Shown here: piece after piece, positions 4,306 through 46,900 of the stretch
How the letters are laid out: every line of letters starts with the position of its first letter
How positions within the stretch are numbered: the stretch's first letter is position 1
Assembly (NCBI GenBank): GCA_023131895.1
Contig: JAGLYZ010000003.1
Span: forward strand, 1,394 to 65,393
Length of the DNA stretch: 64,000 bases
From: Candidatus Parcubacteria bacterium
GTDB taxonomy: Bacteria > Patescibacteriota > Minisyncoccia > Minisyncoccales > JAGMDC01
Direction: 5' to 3'
Translations under genes and position numbers: made by a program
Notes under the pieces: generated by a model
What the model was told of the DNA's origin: nothing
Database searches by the model: none
The model's input: the letters and a program-made list of their open reading frames with translations, nothing else

Positions 4306-4376
4306 CGGGGTATAGTGCAATGGCAGCACGAGTCCTTTGGGAGGATTTAATCCCAGTTCGAGTCTGGGTACCCCGA
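4306..4376 (+). tRNA. tRNA-Pro (anticodon TGG)
   Basis: Hand-folded cloverleaf: acceptor CGGGGTA/TACCCCG, anticodon arm AGTCC-TTTGGGA-GGATT, T arm CCCAG-TTCGAGT-CTGGG. CCA is not encoded. Confidence 0.85.
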
Positions 4377-4377
4377 C

Positions 4378-4448
4378 GCGGGTGTAGCTCAATGGCAGAG
4401 CTTCAGATTTCCAATCTGGTGATGAGGGTTCGATCCCCTTCACCCGCT
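4378..4448 (+). tRNA. tRNA-Gly (anticodon TCC)
   Basis: Acceptor GCGGGTG/CACCCGC, anticodon arm TCAGA-TTTCCAA-TCTGG, T loop TTCGATC, discriminator T. It starts 1 nt after tRNA-Pro. Confidence 0.85.
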
Positions 4449-4463
4449 CATAATCTTATATCT

Positions 4464-23770: not shown

Positions 23771-23803
23771 AAAAACGAAAACCCCTTCCTTCTCAGGAAG
23801 GGG
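23771..23803 (-). terminator. rho-independent terminator of hisS
   Basis: The minus strand reads CCCCTTCC-TGAGAA-GGAAGGGG followed by TTTTCGTTTTT. Confidence 0.75.
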
Positions 23804-23912
23804 CTATTTTGATAATTTTTAAAATATCAACACAACCCTTTCCTGAGAAAGAAAAAGTTATGATGATGAGAATCTACTACTTTATTTAATTGTTTTAAAT
23901 TTATAAAATTCA

Positions 23913-25169
23913 TTATTTTATTATCTCTTTTAATTTTTCTAATAACTCTTTTTCTTTTACTTTAATTTGTTCTCCGGTTTTCATATTTCTAAGAGTTATT
24001 TGATTTTTTATTGCTTCTTCCGGACCAATAATTATGACAAAAGGAATTTCTTTTTTATTCGCATATCTTAGTTGTTTTTCCAAACTGGTTTCAAAATCAA
24101 GATAAATTTCATTATTAATATTTTCGGAACGCAATGCTTGAGAAATTTTTATACACTGGTCTAAAAAAGATTTATCAATTATGGTAATTAAAATTTTAGT
24201 GTTTGTTGAAGAAATTTCAGGCCAAAGATTTAATTCTTGTATAGCATCAACTATTCTGTCAATTCCTATTGTTGTGCCGCACGCAGGAATGTCTTTTTCC
24301 GCGAACATTCCGATTAGTTTATCATATCTTCCGCCGCCGGCAATTGAACCAATTTTTGGCTTTTCAACAACTGCTTCATAAATAGGTCCTGTATAATAAT
24401 CCAGTCCTCTTGCTAAAAATGGATCAAATTTGAGAAAATTTTCTGGCACGCTTAATTTTTTTACAAGTAATAATACCTGTTGAAGAAACAAATCCGGTTT
24501 TGCTTTTTTAATAAGCTGAAAAATTTTTTCAGCTGTTTGCGTTTCAATATTTTTTTCTATCAATTCTTGTTTAACTTGCTCAAAAGAAATTTTGTCTAAT
24601 TTATCAATAGATTGTATGGCTGAAAGAATTTTGTCTTGAGATACACCAGCGTTTTTCATAATAGAAAATAGAATTTGGCGGCTATTAATGCGGATTATAA
24701 ATTTTTCAAAACCAATTTTTCGCAGAACCGTATAAATAATTGCGATAATTTCAGCATCAGCCAAAGATGATTTACTGCCAATAGTGTCAATATCACATTG
24801 AGTAAATTCTCTATAACGGCCCTTTTTTGGTTTGTCTGCTCTCCAAACCGGCTGGATTTGGTAGCGTTTAAATGGTTTTGGAATATTGAGATACTGGGCA
24901 ACAAATCGCGACAAAGGAACAGTAAGGTCATACCGTAAAGCTACATCGCGACTGCCTTGATCTTTGAAACGATAAACTAATTTATTTGCTTCACTTCCTA
25001 ATTTACTTAGTAATATCTCAGAGTATTCCAAGCTTGGTGTTTCAATCGGGACAAAGCCATAAGATTCAAAAACATTTTTTACAATATCAAAAACCTTTTG
25101 GCGAATAATCATTTGTTCAGGTGAAAAATCACGAAATCCTTTTAAAATTTTTGGTTCAATTTTTTCCAT
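23913..25169 (-). CDS. hisS: histidine--tRNA ligase
   Basis: 418 aa: ...KGFRDFSPEQM...YRFKDQGSRDVALRYDLTVPLSRF...YQIQPVWRADKPKKGRYREFTQCD...GGGRYD... Confidence 0.9.
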   Translation of the reverse strand: MEKIEPKILKGFRDFSPEQMIIRQKVFDIVKNVFESYGFVPIETPSLEYSEILLSKLGSEANKLVYRFKDQGSRDVALRYDLTVPLSRFVAQYLNIPKPFKRYQIQPVWRADKPKKGRYREFTQCDIDTIGSKSSLADAEIIAIIYTVLRKIGFEKFIIRINSRQILFSIMKNAGVSQDKILSAIQSIDKLDKISFEQVKQELIEKNIETQTAEKIFQLIKKAKPDLFLQQVLLLVKKLSVPENFLKFDPFLARGLDYYTGPIYEAVVEKPKIGSIAGGGRYDKLIGMFAEKDIPACGTTIGIDRIVDAIQELNLWPEISSTNTKILITIIDKSFLDQCIKISQALRSENINNEIYLDFETSLEKQLRYANKKEIPFVIIIGPEEAIKNQITLRNMKTGEQIKVKEKELLEKLKEIIK

Positions 25170-25176
25170 ATTTTTG

Positions 25177-25251
25177 GGTGGACGACGGGGAACGATCCCG
25201 CATCCCTAGCTCCACAAGCTAGTACTCTAAACCAATTGAGCTACATCCACC
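25177..25251 (-). tRNA. tRNA-His (anticodon GTG) with G-1; atypical T loop
   Basis: G-1 + GTGGATG/CGTCCAC + C73, anticodon arm CTAGC-TTGTGGA-GCTAG, T arm GCGGG-ATCGTTC-CCCGT (A54/T58 instead of T54/A58). Confidence 0.7.
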
Positions 25252-25261
25252 ATAAAACAAA

Positions 25262-25575
25262 AAACTCCCGTTCCTCTTACAAGATAAGAAAAATCATTAT
25301 AGATTTTTCCCAGAGGAACGAGAGTTTTAATATAAAATTCCCGCGGTCCCATCCTCGTTTCCTAACACCTTAAAAGGTAGCAGGACACTTGATTAAGTTA
25401 ACGATGAGTGACACCGTCTCAGCTTGTATCTTCTTAGGATTTTCTTGCCGAGCTGCTCCAGAGGCGTGTTTAGAAATTTTTTAGCGCTTGGCTTTCACTA
25501 CCCCAAGCTCGCTTTAGCTTATATTATATTTCTTACTATTCCTCTGTACAAACGCATTTCGTATTTAATTTTAAT
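25262..25575 (-). ncRNA. T-box riboswitch leader, His specifier (CAC)
   Basis: Stem I: CAGAGG/CCUCUG base, specifier loop AAUAGUA / AAA-CAC-G, distal GCUUGG-GGUAGUGAAAG-CCAAGC. Antiterminator: GAGGA-UGGGACC-GCGGGA..UCUCGU-UCCUC. Terminator: AAAACUCUCGUUCCUCU..AGAGGAACGGGAGUUUUUU. Confidence 0.85.
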
Positions 25576-25586
25576 CTCTATTATAA

Positions 25587-25614
25587 AGTATATGGATTCT
25601 AAAAAATTTGTCAA
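25587..25614 (-). promoter_or_regulatory. candidate promoter of the T-box leader
   Basis: The minus strand reads TTGACA-16 nt-TATACT. Confidence 0.5.
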
Positions 25615-25625
25615 GTTTTTTTGTG

Positions 25626-25698
25626 GGCGAACGAGGAGATTCGAACTCCCCCTTAGATCTCCACAGGATCTAGTGCTAACCACTACACTACGTTCGCC
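25626..25698 (-). tRNA. tRNA-His (anticodon GTG), canonical
   Basis: G-1 + GCGAACG/CGTTCGC + C73, anticodon arm AGATC-CTGTGGA-GATCT, T arm GGGAG-TTCGAAT-CTCCT. Confidence 0.8.
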
Positions 25699-40960: not shown

Positions 40961-43900
40961 TCATACTCCGTCTTCGGAAGGCGTGGTTGTGTCAACTGGA
41001 GGAATATCTGGAACATCTGGAACATCTGGCTCGCTCCCTTCGACTTCAACACACTCGCCGAGTTGCTTTTGCCATTCGCCATTTTCAATCCAGGTACACC
41101 AAACATGGCCAGTAGCTTTATCCCGCATCTCCATTTGCTCAGCCGCCATTGTTTTTGTCTTTAATTTTTGGACCTCCAAAGTACCGTATTCACTGACGAT
41201 TAAGCCGAGATTAGATAGATTATTGATAATTGATAATTGATCATCATTGAGAATATTATCGTTCTCGTCAGTAATAACTGCCAAATCCTGGCCCTGCCAG
41301 CCAACATTAACCAAAGTCATCACCTTGCCGATTTCGCTTTGTACTACTTCACAACTTTCAGGTTCTATATCTTCTCCTTCTTCGTTTTTAATAAAGCTGA
41401 TTTCACAATTAGTCACTGTACCGTCAAACGGCTCAAAGGCCTGACCAATAATCCTGCCAGGGCCAGTGGCTTTCATAGCCACCCCTGGCTCAGAAGAAGA
41501 AGTTAAAAAATCACCGATTTTAATAGGCCCGTTTTCCAGATTAACTTTAACCGGCACTCTACCAACTAAAGCAACCGGAACCTGGAAAGGATAATCTTCG
41601 GTATTACAACCGCTACCTAAAATTAAACCTGGTTTAGTTGAAATTACACCAATTATTGTTTGTTCGTAAGAACTTACTGTTTTTTCAACTAAGTTTGATT
41701 CTTTAATTCTGACTACATCTCCTGGTTCAAGTTCTTTGTTTGAGAAAAATAATTCAGCGACATCAGATTCGCCGCTATGAGCAGTGCCATAATAAATATC
41801 TCCGGCTATATTGCCAGCGCAATCATTACCGTCTGCTCTTACGCATAACGCTCCTACAACCTTTAATTTAGCAGTGGGCGTTGTGTCGCCAATACCAACA
41901 CTGCCTTCAATGATTACTCCATCAGTGGGTGAAGTAGTGGTCATATAGCTAGAGCCGAAAGCAGCATTACCGGCTACGGATAACATTGCTAAGGGCACGG
42001 TTGTGCCAATGCCCAGGTTGCCGCCAAAATAGGCATCTCCTTTGCCAGAGATATTGCCTGCGCTGAACAAACCACCAGAACCGATATTGACGCCGCCGCT
42101 AATCTGGAGCTGGCCCTGAGCGATAATATCATTTCTTACCTGAAGACTGCCAGCTTCCAAAGAATGAGCCATAATTGATGTTGCCTCAATTCCTTTAATA
42201 TCCACCACTACTACTCTGGCTGGGGATGTACATGTTAAAATATAGGCGTATCTTCCTGAGACAGCAATGGAATAACCATAGTTTTCACCCGTATCCAGGA
42301 TGACTGCGCCAATTCGGATTGGGCTAACAGGATTAGAAATATCCACCACTACTACTCTCGCTGGAGATGTCCATGTTAAAACATAGGCATATCTGCCCGA
42401 GACAGCAATGGAATAACTAATGTTTTCACCCGCAGCCAGGGTGACTGCGCCAATTCGGGTTGGAGAGGCAGGATTAGAAATATCCACCACTACTACCATG
42501 GCTGGGGATGTGTATGTTGAAACATAGGCGTATCTTCCAGAGACAGCAATGGAATAACCCCAGTCTTCACCCGCAGCCAGGGTAACTGCGCCAACTCGGG
42601 TTGGAGAGGCAGGATTAGAAATATCCACCACTACTACTCTGGCTGGGGATGTCTCTGTTGAAACATAGGCATATCTTCTCGAGACAGCAATGGAAAGACC
42701 TTCGTCTTCACCCGCAGCCAGGGTGACTGCGCCAACTCGGGTTGGGCTAACAGGATTAGAAATATCCACCACTACTACTCTGGCTGGGGATGTGCCTGTT
42801 GAAACATAGGCATATCTTCCCGAGACAGCAATGGAATAACCATAGTTTTCACCCGCAGCCAGGGTGACTGCGCCAACTCGGGTTGGGCTAACAGGATTAG
42901 AAATATCCACCACTACTACTCTGGCTGGGTTTGTAAATATTGAAACATAGGCGTATCTTCCCGAGACAGCAATGGAATAACCAGTGTTTTCACCCGCAGC
43001 CAGGGTGACTGCGCCAATTCTGGTTGGGCTAACAGGATTAGAAATATCCACCACTACTACCCTGGCTGGGGATGTGTATGTTGAAACATAGGCGTATCTT
43101 CCAGAGACAGCAATGGAATAACCAGTGTTTTCACCCGCAGCCAGGGTGACTGCGCCAACTCGGGTTGGAGAGGCATCAGCATTGGCGATATTTTGAATAT
43201 TCCCCACAACATCCAATTTTGTTCCTGGCGTTGCTGTTCCTATTCCGACATTGCCATTTACAAAAGCAGCTGCATACTCTGCACCTGCTCCTGTGCCAGC
43301 ATCTACATACAGGCCATAGCCAGTTGTTCCTGATGCTGCTGTAATTGTTGAGTATAATCCATAGATTGTATCTGCTCCTGATGCAGTGAAGTAGCCAGCA
43401 ATATTAATGGAAGTTGTGCCAGTATTGGCAACTGAAGAATATATACCATAAGCTGTATGGGACGCATTAGCATTGGTGCCAGAGCGAGAGAGGTTGAGAA
43501 GCTTTGAGGTCCCGCTTGCTCCGCCAGCAGTGGAAGTAGAAGTAATATCTAAACCAGTTCCAGTTATTAAGCCATTAACTGAAAGAGCCATTCCAGTGCC
43601 GGAGGTAATTGAGTCGCCAGTGAGATTTACAATATCACCAGTGCCGGCTTGGGTCACGGTGAGAGCGGTGAGAGTGGCATCTGAATCTGTCTCAATTACA
43701 AATAATCCTTCCCCTGCGGCGCCGGTGCGGTTGCCGGCAATAGAAGTAGCGGCGCCAACAACAGAAAGCCCGTCGGTTGTTTTATTGCCGCGAAGGTCAT
43801 TATCAGAAATAGTGTTGTAATTTGAAGAGCCTGTCTCTTCTATTCCATATTCCTGTGTCTTTGTCCCCTGAGTATCAGTACAACGATTATCGCTAATGAT

Positions 43901-46900
43901 ATTATATGTGGAATCGTGAATTTTTATTCCATCGTCATCATTTAGATAAATACCTGTTGGGTCTTGCCCATTATTTATACAAACATTACCGGAAACAGTA
44001 TTATTATCTGAACTATGAGTAAGCCAAATTCCTTCAAAATTATTTTTATAGCAATTATTATTATTCACTACATTTCCATCAGAATATTCCAAAGCAATTC
44101 CGGCTTTCTGATTTTCATAACAACTGTTGCCAGTAATAGTATTATAATGAGCGCCATCGCTTCCAATACTTTTCTCAAGCAAAATCCCAGCGTCAGCATT
44201 ATTATAGCAAACATTTCCTTCTACTATATTATAATTAGCGCTGCTGTAAAGAGTTATACCATCTGTGCCGTTATTATTGCAGGTATTACCTATAATTTTA
44301 TTATTATCTGCTCCATCAATAAAAATACCTCTACTGCTACAACTATCAATTTCATTATACGAAATAGTGTTAAAACCAGAAGAAACATAAACACCGTACA
44401 CGCCGGTTGTGATCCTATTTTTTATCACAATATTATAATTACCTCCGATTTCAATCCCATTACCAGCGCCAGAATCACAATAGTTATTCTCAATCTTGTT
44501 ATAATTTGATGAACTTAAGGCGATATTTGTCGGTGATCCTGTAATGACATTGTTGCTGAAAACATTATTATCTGATGAATTTAACTCCACTCCGTTGGCT
44601 GAAGGAGTTCTACCTATAATAGTATTGCCAGAGATTATATTTTTAGAGCAGGATGTTACTTTAAGATAATATATGTATTTGTTGCCGCGTATTATGTTAG
44701 AATTTGATGACGTCAAAATCATATACCCTAGATTACCGAAATAATTATTAATGATGGAATTATTCGATGAAGACAATATTCTCATTAAAGCATTAAGTTC
44801 GTTATTCTCAACTAAGCAATTAGATGAAGAATCTAATCCAAGAGTTGCACCGCGATTGAAACTGCAACTTGAAATATTAGATTGCGAAGAAGATTTTAAT
44901 AAAACTCCAAAGTCCTGTAAACTATCTAAGTAATTAGGTGAGGTAAATTTAATTTTTTCAACCGAAACCATACTTCTATTTTCAACATTTATAATGCCAT
45001 CATATAATTGCTTAACATAATTATCATCTGGATATGGTGGATCCCCCGCGGAATAGTTATTTTGAAGATTATCCACCATTGTAAGAATATCATTTGATAT
45101 AGAAGCAATTGTATTGATTTCACTTGTTTCTCCTTCTTCCATAGAATAGATATAAACTTTTTCACCTACATAATATTGAGATGCATCAAGAACTTCTATA
45201 TCCGGCTGACCACTGGAAGCACTAGCCGCAATGCCTGATTTATATACTGCGGCATTTAGAATGGTCGCTCCTTTTGCCGCACCTGTTATCACAACATTAT
45301 TTTTATTAACCACAACTGGTTGTTTCAAATTGTAAGTTCCTTCTAACAAATAAACCAAACCGCCGGCAGAAGGCAAGGCAGTTATCGCCGCATTTATCTG
45401 AACATCATCTGCTGTTCCATCGCAGACATAATCCGCTTTTTCTTTGTTTTGGGAGTCGCTGGCTGCCACGATTTTGGTTGCTGTTGTTCTGTCTGTGTGC
45501 CAGCGAGAATCACCCGCGTCATAAACATAGAGTTGATTTTTGTCAGTGGCAAAATATATTTGGCCTTCAACTGGAGCAGGCGAACTCGGCAGATTAGCGT
45601 AAGTGCCGGAATGAATTACCGGTTCAATAATCTGGTGCTGGTTCATATCCAAATTAGCGCCAGCGAAAATTACTCCTGCGCCAGAAGGAGTTATTGTTAT
45701 GTCTTGATTTGTTCCTCTGGCAGTAAGGTCAATGGCGCCATTGGCATCAACAGCAAGAATTGCTTCGGTGCCTCGTTTTAATTGATAGACACCAGTAGCG
45801 GCAAAAACATTATAAAGGGAAGCCAGAGAAGTAAAAGTAATATTTCCAGAAGAGCCGCAAGCCACTGTTAAATAATTAGAAGCGTCATATCCAACCGTGA
45901 GTTGAGGAGTTGAAGTAGAAGTAATTGTTGTTTGGCCGCCATTGGCAATAATAAAATTGTCTGCGCCGTCTGTCTGAAAGCGAACAACATTGCCTGCACC
46001 TTGCTGATTAACTAATAAACCGTCTGCTGACGAAGTCACAGTAAAAACAGCGGCGCCGGAATAGGTCTGGGCGCCGGTCACAGTAAAATCGCCGCCGACA
46101 ACAATATTGCCGTCTGTATTAACATTGCCGCTTGTGTCTACTGTAAAACTTGCATCGCTGCCTGTTTCGCCTATGGTTAAAGTATTGTTAATAGTTACAG
46201 GCGCTCCAAAATTAGATGTGGCATTAACTGTAAGGGTATCAGTTTTGTTAGTTCCCAAAACAGTATTGTCGGCAACATCCAGATATTGGAAACCGCCGGC
46301 AGAAACACCTAATGAAGTAACAGTGCCTGTTCCGCCAACGCTAACTGTGCCAGAACCAATATAAGAACTTGGAAATGAAGCAATGTTTGATTGGAGATTT
46401 TTAATATTATTTTCTGCTTGAGCTAATTGCGATTTTATTTCTGTTAATGACGCGCTGTCAAGAATTTTTATTTCTTTGGTAATTTCTTTGAGCGGCTCTA
46501 TCTGGGTTATTTTTTGAACCTCTTTTATAATTTCTTTTTGCGGCAGTCCTTCTCTTTCCATTTTTTCAATCTTTGCCTGAAGCTCTACTAAAGCTTGTTC
46601 TAATTCCTTATCTATTTTTTCTTTTTCAACAACAATTTCTTCTTTTTCTTCCGGCCATTCTGGTTCTTCTCCCCAAAGAGACCTGTATGCTTGACTTAAT
46701 TTTTCTTCAACAAAATCATTGGCATTTTGATATTCCTGTTTAAAAGCAATACTAGTATTCATTATTTTCTGACCGATATTTGACGGTGCTTCTTTTATTA
46801 TTTTACTTACAACAAGAGCCTGCTCTCCATACCATCGGATAAATTTCTGAAAGATATTGAGGCTGTATTTAAAGTCATCGTCTGTCTCGCCAACCACTTC

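Follow-up and report, generated by a model that had tools for sequence, protein, structure and literature searches.

A T-box riboswitch specific for histidine, a tRNA-His gene and hisS, the gene of histidyl-tRNA synthetase (HisRS), follow one another on the minus strand of the window, by which is meant the whole 64-kb stretch (64,000 nucleotides (nt)) of a Candidatus Parcubacteria contig analyzed here. The leader is a genuine class-I, transcription-terminating, His-specific T-box of ordinary mechanism and, as an RNA, a new His-specific member of the transcriptional class of a known family; what is unusual is its cargo, in which the cognate tRNA comes first, and its evolutionary context. The nested tRNA gene, hereafter tRNA-His #2, is likely to be co-transcribed with hisS behind the T-box, and its control by the riboswitch is what we infer from the layout. 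If the layout works as read, uncharged tRNA would induce the supplies of tRNA and synthetase together, a feedback with distinctive dynamics. At the same time, T-box regulation is extended to bacteria of the candidate phyla radiation (CPR), whose gene regulation is almost unstudied.

The host was assigned to Candidatus Parcubacteria, and hence to the CPR, through its HisRS (418 amino acids (aa); 25169-23913, with the ATG at 25169), which is 100% identical to a protein named by NCBI as a Parcubacteria histidine--tRNA ligase and whose next-closest relatives are found in metagenomes of Patescibacteria/CPR; a CPR-like genome had already been suspected in a first-pass annotation, made from the DNA letters alone. 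The protein carries the precomputed Pfam domains PF13393 (tRNA-synt_His) and PF03129 (HGTP_anticodon), 8000 homologs of it were found, and the G+C content of the window is approximately 34%. For comparison, 171 HisRS loci were fetched, and these are given by L-number wherever single loci have to be told apart. All parts of the system lie on the minus strand, and their coordinates are given in that direction.

Structure and conservation of the T-box leader

The leader comprises 251 nt (25561-25311) and matches the Rfam T-box family RF00230 over its full length (model positions 1-219) at 93.2 bits, with a gathering threshold of 93 and an E-value of 4.4e-19; a relaxed Rfam search (E<0.01) of all 64 kb detected no further T-box. 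It is preceded by a promoter-like sequence, TTGACA-16-TATACT (P2, 25614-25587), that matches the consensus at 11 of 12 positions. Stem I (25555-25455) holds the specifier loop, the AG bulge, and the distal loop. On its 5' side the specifier loop reads AAUAGUAAG (25540-25532), and its 3' side, AAACACG, presents the histidine codon CAC (25468-25466) with the purine G25465 next to it; the AG bulge AGCGA and the distal loop GGGGUAGUGAAAGCC (25513-25490) align to AGAGA and GgUUGGUGaaA of the model, respectively. Stem II together with the Stem IIA region is annotated at 25452-25402 (Stem II at 25452-25418, and the Stem IIA region, which contains CGUUA, at 25416-25397), followed by Stem III at 25385-25360, as placed by the alignment to the Rfam model.

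The antiterminator (25355-25314) reads AGGA-UGGGACC-GCGGG...CUCGU-UCCU and is composed of helix A1 (AGGA/UCCU), a 7-nt bulge (UGGGACC), and helix A2 (GCGGG/CUCGU). The UGGG of the bulge (25351-25348) complements the 3' end of tRNA-His, C73-C-C-A, with G25348 opposite C73 of both tRNA-His genes of the window. Because the discriminator of tRNA-His can pair with G-1, bulge matching is handled differently for His T-boxes in TBDB (PMC7778990). The intrinsic terminator and its U-tract (25328-25259) consist of two arms (25328-25312 and 25277-25261), an inner stem, and six U residues (25264-25259). Folded alone, the antiterminator reaches -13.1 kcal/mol and the terminator hairpin, with 17 base pairs (bp) plus the inner stem, -33.9 kcal/mol; 121 nt around the terminator fold at -37.8 kcal/mol, with z = -4.6 relative to shuffled sequences. 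Since the 5' arm of the terminator contains the 3' strand of the antiterminator (25322-25314), the two folds are mutually exclusive. A simple terminator scan with a loop limit of 8 nt misses this hairpin, which was found by folding. The first-pass annotation had described the promoter, the CAC specifier at 25468-25466, a complete His-specific T-box that was to be checked with Infernal against RF00230, and an antiterminator with a UGGG bulge complementary to the tRNA-His end, all of which are borne out, the match to RF00230 lying above the gathering threshold; its terminator, given as 25327-25262, holds as a hairpin that excludes the antiterminator, whereas the coordinates were off by 1-3 nt (25328-25261). 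Antitermination by uncharged tRNA-His would follow, by analogy, from established T-box biology.

The same architecture is found in L161, L165, and L166, which are short metagenome contigs with one identical upstream sequence and a HisRS that is 86-87% identical to that of the window. Here, the order is a TTGACA-16-TAAGAT promoter, the T-box, the terminator, a tRNA-His(GTG) gene, about 100 nt with two hairpins, and hisS; the promoter of L161 occupies the same relative position as P2, and its T-box ortholog scores 97.8 bits with Rfam. Covariation was counted between the window and L161 only, the 5' half of the L020 T-box having been misaligned by MAFFT. Among the 47 model pairs compared, 38 are identical, five show compensatory changes, and in two a single partner differs, without loss of any Watson-Crick pair. 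Three of the compensatory pairs belong to Stem I (17:102, 20:99, and 29:90), one to Stem II, in which one of the one-sided changes is also located, and one to Stem III (U:A to C:G). The 6-bp helix below the specifier loop reads CAGAGG/CCUCUG in the window versus CGGAAA/UUUCCG in L161, and L161 likewise has the terminator, in which one C:G pair is exchanged for U:A, a compensatory change. Neither the CAC specifier nor the UGGG bulge is altered in L161 (specifier loop GAACACG) or in the T-box of L020, from candidate division WWE3 (also GAACACG). Compensatory changes around a preserved specifier and bulge are, as far as sequence comparison can tell, the look of a riboswitch in use.

The spacer of about 100 nt between the nested tRNA and hisS of L161 (1121-1218), which is absent from the window, contains a hairpin GCGGCGAAGCCGC and an 11-bp stem GGAACAAATGC/GCATTTGTTCC, is not accompanied by a U-tract, and may be a small inserted repeat.

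The nested tRNA-His gene and its place behind the switch

The tRNA-His(GTG) gene nested between the terminator and hisS extends from G-1 at 25251 to C73 at 25177; ARAGORN and Rfam (56.3 bits) both place it at 25250-25176/25177. It possesses the GUG anticodon, G18G19, U55C56, the pair G53:C61, and an encoded G-1 opposite C73, which is typical of tRNA-His in bacteria and serves as an identity element for HisRS. In an alignment of five tRNAs (both tRNA-His of the window and those of L161, L163, and L168), the combination G-1:C73 is invariant and all 22 cloverleaf pairs form in each sequence, while the four orthologs of tRNA-His #2 (window, L161, L163, and L168) show compensatory changes at 2:71, 5:68, and 27:43. 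The CCA end is only partly encoded, C-A alone following C73. The T-loop (25196-25190) reads AUCGUUC and thus has A54/U58 in place of the canonical U54/A58; the same two residues occur in L161 (AUCGUGC, approximately 1102-1108) and in L168 (AUCAUGC, approximately 2973-2979), with variation at positions 57 and 59, and the ortholog of L163 has a canonical T-loop, UUCGAGU, and a fully encoded CCA. A54/U58 has thus persisted in three lineages next to changing residues 57 and 59; the odd T-loop is therefore conserved and is not a product of decay. An alternative register of the T-arm, with GGGA/UCCC closing a UCGU tetraloop as in the minimum free energy fold, was discarded because U59 is a G in L161 and L168. 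Two finders recognize the element and everything but its T-loop conforms to tRNA-His, which is why it is treated here as a tRNA-His gene with a predicted function as a tRNA.

A further tRNA-His(GTG) gene, tRNA-His #1 (25698-25626; ARAGORN, and Rfam at 56.8 bits), lies between a tRNA-Arg(TCT) gene and the T-box promoter, with G-1 at 25698, C73 at 25626, and a canonical T-loop, TTCGAAT. One tRNA-His gene thus lies on either side of the T-box, #1 outside its control and #2 probably within it; the two are only distantly alike, and #1 is presumably constitutive. The tRNA-Arg gene (25783-25708), called by ARAGORN and Rfam, and tRNA-His #1 follow another promoter-like sequence, TTGACC-17-TATAAT (P1, 25821-25793), which is known from its 11 of 12 consensus matches only. 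As the terminator scan finds no terminator between P1 and the T-box, transcripts from P1 would, by inference, also run into the leader. The corresponding position of L161, L165, and L166 retains no more than 17 nt from the 5' part of a tRNA (GGTGGGCGTAGTATAGT; 630-650 in L161), just 3' of a gene of 166 aa with weak HNH and zinc-finger matches. This remnant suggests that the L161 lineage has lost its upstream tRNA-His; the nested tRNA may be the working tRNA-His there, although the contigs are too short to tell.

The U-tract of the terminator and G-1 of tRNA-His #2 are separated by 7 nt, as are C73 and the ATG of hisS. A consensus scan finds no promoter-like site on the minus strand at 25330-25170, and no terminator is detected by scanning between tRNA-His #2 and hisS in the window. 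A tRNA-His(GUG) gene at 25251-25177 between the terminator and hisS, with the synthetase gene starting 7 nt past the tRNA, had been proposed in the first-pass annotation, together with the caution that a promoter between the terminator and the tRNA would make the unit independent of the leader; the gene, its position, and the identity of hisS agree with that proposal, and scanning detects no such promoter in the window, L161 having one weak match (9/12).

In the proposed mechanism, transcription would start at TTGACA-16-TATACT, with possible read-in from the promoter of tRNA-Arg and tRNA-His #1, and Stem I would hold tRNA-His by two contacts, the CAC:GUG pairing and the distal platform. Uncharged tRNA-His, supplied by #1 and/or #2 (both with GUG and C73), would pair its C73-CCA with the UGGG bulge and stabilize the antiterminator, allowing the polymerase to pass the terminator and to transcribe tRNA-His #2 first and hisS second. 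The tRNA would be released by an RNase P cut 5' of the encoded G-1, by trimming of the 3' end after C73, and by CCA addition; after its release, the hisS mRNA would be nearly leaderless, with a leader of about 7 nt. In this manner, an accumulation of uncharged tRNA-His would induce HisRS jointly with tRNA-His #2, the other local copy, #1, being made regardless. Because fresh tRNA is uncharged, the induction should reinforce itself until HisRS catches up. A bolder and rather unlikely extension is that uncharged tRNA-His drives its own synthesis along with that of HisRS in a self-referential loop, which in L161 may govern the main supply of tRNA-His, and that A54/U58 marks a specialized tRNA-His, perhaps a dedicated T-box effector or a HisRS-binding operator near the start of hisS, and not a standard decoding tRNA.

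Several observations weigh against the reading of a working T-box that controls a functional tRNA gene. The T-box score exceeds the Rfam gathering threshold by 0.2 bits only, and the basal K-turn (GA motif) of Stem I is unrecognizable in both the window and L161, with no clear tandem G·A pairs: the 3' strand is GGAGC and the 5' strand UUUGUAC where the model has aUGAa, and the region reads UAAUAC/GAAGC in L161. Moreover, the architecture is found in two distinct sequences only, and the covariation amounts to one pairwise comparison. The low score, the unrecognizable K-turn, and the fact that this is the sole T-box of the window could speak for a decaying relic or a chance match in which the hairpin is merely the terminator of the upstream tRNA operon. 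Such a relic is, however, scarcely credible and effectively refuted by an E-value of 4e-19 over the full model, a higher-scoring ortholog in L161, five compensatory changes with no lost pairs, a specifier and a bulge that both fit tRNA-His and the cognate gene, and a dedicated promoter conserved between the window and L161. Co-transcription of the tRNA and its dependence on the T-box, for their part, are deduced from spacing alone, and promoter-like sequences are not far away. In L161, TTTAGA-18-TATATT (9/12, with TG) overlaps the 3' arm of the terminator and ends 4 nt before the tRNA; in the window, a TATAAT is located in the terminator loop. Thus, tRNA-His #2 and hisS might be expressed from a promoter of their own that overlaps the 3' arm or loop of the terminator, and the T-box would then control nothing of consequence or add to a constitutive level. 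The tRNA-hisS pair of L168, which directly follows the terminator-like hairpin of another gene with no obvious promoter, also speaks for this explanation, since expression in the clade must tolerate such layouts. Nevertheless, a separate promoter is very improbable: the scan of 25330-25170 is empty, the L161 match is at chance level (about 2.7 such matches are expected per 700 nt) with a predicted start inside the tRNA, the TATAAT lacks both a -35 element and a counterpart in L161, and an intact T-box maintained by compensatory changes implies use.

The T-loop provides the remaining objection to a T-box that gates a functional tRNA, because A54/U58 departs from the near-universal U54/A58 and the full decoding function of tRNA-His #2 is not assured. 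With the T-box working as described, the tRNA-shaped element could act mainly in cis in the hisS mRNA, either as a processing "punctuation" for RNase P/RNase Z that frees the hisS mRNA and sets its stability, or as a tRNA-mimic operator that is bound by HisRS and blocks the start codon 7 nt away, resulting in translational autoregulation. Both roles have parallels, in that leader processing is important for thrS of Bacillus subtilis, a T-box gene, and thrS of Escherichia coli is autoregulated translationally through a tRNA-mimic operator. The latter, an imitation of the tRNA-Thr anticodon arm bound by ThrRS, resembles the window in having a tRNA-shaped element beside the start of the cognate synthetase gene, a likeness that bears on the cis-acting role only; it differs in that the element of the window, which is known here from its sequence alone, forms an entire tRNA gene in which no identity element is missing. 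A cis-acting role would also suit the preservation of A54/U58 in three lineages in spite of changes at 57 and 59, the very short spacing from tRNA to ATG that is similar in the window and L168 (CCAAAAAUAUG and CCCUAAAAAUAUG), and the presence of a canonical tRNA-His #1, 375 nt upstream, that could supply translation. A Shine-Dalgarno sequence is absent from hisS in the window, L161, L162, L163, L168, and L081, which counts in the same direction; the neighboring small open reading frames (ORFs) carry AGGAGG. Against this stand the intact identity elements of tRNA-His and the stems that keep pairing through compensatory changes, as well as the L163 ortholog with its canonical T-loop and complete CCA. 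In L161, L165, and L166, furthermore, the tRNA is parted from the ATG by about 100 nt and two hairpins, so a tight spacing is not required, and the reduction of tRNA-His #1 to a 5' fragment suggests that the nested copy is needed there as a tRNA. A predominantly cis-acting element is accordingly an outside chance, less improbable than a separate promoter, and a tRNA-His gene behind a functional T-box is the preferred reading.

Origin of the arrangement and relation to known systems

Survey of related hisS loci, as suggested in the first-pass annotation, yielded a mixed answer: the same order is present in L161, L165, and L166, but the tRNA-hisS pair predates the T-box, and a T-box in the CPR is not unique to this genome. 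In addition, tRNA-His #1, the older tRNA-hisS pairs that lack a T-box, their relatives with leader peptides, and the attenuator after hisS had not been noticed in that annotation. In L163/L164 (HisRS 79% identical), no T-box is present, and the order is tRNA-Arg(TCT), 16 nt, tRNA-His, 26 nt, and hisS, so that an ortholog of the tRNA-Arg gene of the window precedes the pair. Downstream, L163 shares with the window the His leader, a small ORF at the corresponding position, and a convergent gene for an HtrA-like protease. The tRNA-His of L163 is orthologous to #2, not to #1. In L168/L169 (HisRS 67% identical), 8 nt separate hisS from a tRNA-His that carries the A54/U58 loop, and a T-box is missing, as judged from the antiterminator scan and from the mere 58 nt or so between the upstream gene and the tRNA. 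A tRNA-His gene is also located within about 100 nt 5' of hisS in L006, L039, L120, and L131, which represent distant Patescibacteria and an Anaerolineales genome; no T-box was found by Rfam at E<0.01 in these four loci or in L163. All these pairs, without a T-box, resemble the window in having tRNA-His(GUG) directly 5' of hisS on the same strand, and that of L168 additionally in its A54/U58 T-loop and short AAAAAUAUG junction, whereas L163 differs by its canonical T-loop.

A HisRS tree, which is a rough neighbor-joining tree without support values, places the window and L161 together as sister to L163, with the leader-peptide loci and L168 outside. By this comparison of sequences, the tRNA-His-hisS pair is ancestral in the clade and probably older than the T-box, and a block of tRNA-His #1, promoter, and T-box is apparently placed between tRNA-Arg and the old pair in the window/L161 lineage only. 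Given the greater age of the pair and the presence of another tRNA-His gene upstream, the capture of a tRNA by a T-box would be too simple a description of the locus.

Other relatives would control hisS by other means. L162, L081, L167, and L170 (HisRS 62-77% identical) have neither a T-box nor a tRNA 5' of hisS; their leaders contain a promoter, a short ORF with HH or HHH (e.g., MNNKIKNLITIHHHTILLLPKRLG*), and a terminator (L162, 2778-3001; L081, 2300-2500; L167, 2830-3000; L170, 2610-2745), which would be a form of His leader-peptide attenuator in the CPR. In L168 and L169, a gene of the TrpR family (PF01371) is found just 5' of tRNA-His-hisS (L168, 2542-2859; L169, 1777-2094), a terminator-like hairpin abuts the tRNA, and a promoter is not visible. 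The HisR histidine repressors of Firmicutes also belong to PF01371 (PMC9413887), and the gene may represent a further mode of His-dependent control. Exchange of T-boxes and His leader peptides has been described for hisS-family genes of Firmicutes (PMC2965389). The hisS genes of this one small clade, with a T-box, a leader-peptide attenuator, a TrpR/HisR-family gene, or a tRNA alone upstream, offer a compact natural example of sensor swapping.

His T-boxes also occur elsewhere in the CPR. Rfam at the gathering threshold revealed no T-box in 20 HisRS loci; as divergent CPR T-boxes fall below gathering, relaxed Rfam searches (E<0.01) were combined with a scan of the 171 loci for an antiterminator (4 bp, UGGNACC, 5 bp, a loop, and the nine complementary bases). 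The scan matched the window, L161/L165/L166, L020, L005, L075, and L113, of which the last two were treated as chance because the CCGCG core is missing. In L020 (1815-2500), from candidate division WWE3, a T-box recognized by Rfam (66 bits, E 4e-12) is followed by a 66-aa ORF and hisS; in L005 (1620-2482), from the Patescibacteria group, an identical AGGAUGGGACCGCGG core and a terminator are followed by a 187-aa ORF and hisS, the leader having an atypical short 5' domain that is not scored by Rfam. Neither ORF belongs to a Pfam family, and a DapF-like protein or racemase encoded by the 187-aa ORF was dropped as a guess without Pfam support. These two T-boxes before hisS make the CPR T-box a feature not unique to the window genome. 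No tRNA stands behind the terminator in either locus; His T-boxes are thus scattered in the CPR; among the 171 loci sampled, a tRNA as cargo is confined to the window/L161 lineage.

T-boxes that act on hisS have been described in Firmicutes (PMC2965389). The leader of the window is like those of Bacillus and Lactobacillales (RF00230) in its CAC specifier followed by a purine, AG bulge, distal loop, Stems II, IIA, and III, UGGN bulge, mutually exclusive terminator with U-tract, and cognate synthetase as the protein target. It is unlike them in its CPR host, in the tRNA-His that is the first controlled gene, in the unrecognizable K-turn, and in a score that barely reaches the family threshold. 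Known targets of T-boxes are genes of synthetases, biosynthesis, and transporters, and we know of no described T-box that controls a tRNA gene. Likewise, no paper was found in the literature searched that links T-boxes with CPR, Patescibacteria, or Parcubacteria, and no report of a T-box gating a tRNA gene or its own ligand tRNA, absence there not being proof. As for tRNA genes that precede a protein gene, the thrU-tyrU-glyT-thrT-tufB operon of E. coli contains tRNAs 5' of a translation gene on one transcript, from which they are released by RNase P and 3' processing. The likeness to the window is that of tRNA genes upstream of a gene of the translation apparatus; the tRNAs of that operon are, however, non-cognate and not under a riboswitch, whereas the tRNA of the window is both the substrate of the synthetase and the ligand of the riboswitch.

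A second histidine sensor and other features of the window

After hisS, a short ORF of 28 codons, MNFINLKQLNKVVDSHHHNFFFLRKGLC* (23913-23827), begins with an ATG that overlaps the hisS stop codon (TAATG, 23915-23911) and encodes a peptide with HHH, specified by CAT CAT CAT at 23868-23860. It is followed at 23859-23770 by four mutually complementary segments capable of alternative pairings, including a terminator (23805-23780) with a U-tract; the region folds at -45.5 kcal/mol with z = -6.5. The element is kept in five lineages (window, L161, L162, L163, and L167), and the stems of L161 and L167 differ in sequence while their complementarity is kept. The His_leader family of Rfam has no match to it, and a below-threshold match to mir-513 at 23779-23860 was rejected as spurious, being the attenuator hairpin itself. 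Judged by this organization, the element would be a form of the classical ribosome-stalling attenuator.

His leader-peptide attenuators have been described in Bacillus, at the leaders of a hisS paralog and of hisZ (PMC2965389), and at the his operons of Firmicutes (PMC9413887). Those of E. coli/Salmonella hisL, Bacillus, and Firmicutes share with the T-box the same histidine/tRNA-His signal and the same kind of gene; they are unlike it in depending on ribosome stalling, not on tRNA binding. The window appears to have both kinds in series, so that the operon would hold two His sensors, the T-box before hisS and the HHH attenuator after it, and this pairing provides a testable comparison of uncharged- versus charged-tRNA sensing.

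Downstream of the attenuator lies a Cys-rich ORF of 69 aa (23712-23503). Its Shine-Dalgarno sequence, AGGAGGTG, is strong, it matches no Pfam family, and histidine starvation presumably induces it. The small ORFs located 3' of the HHH attenuator differ from locus to locus and are non-homologous.

Elsewhere in the window, the G+C content rises to 0.47 at 42001-44000, compared with a background of about 0.33, and Rfam gives no RNA match in this region, either at the gathering threshold or at E<0.01. On the plus strand, tRNA-Pro(TGG) and tRNA-Gly(TCC) are called at 4306-4449 and abut each other with no spacer.

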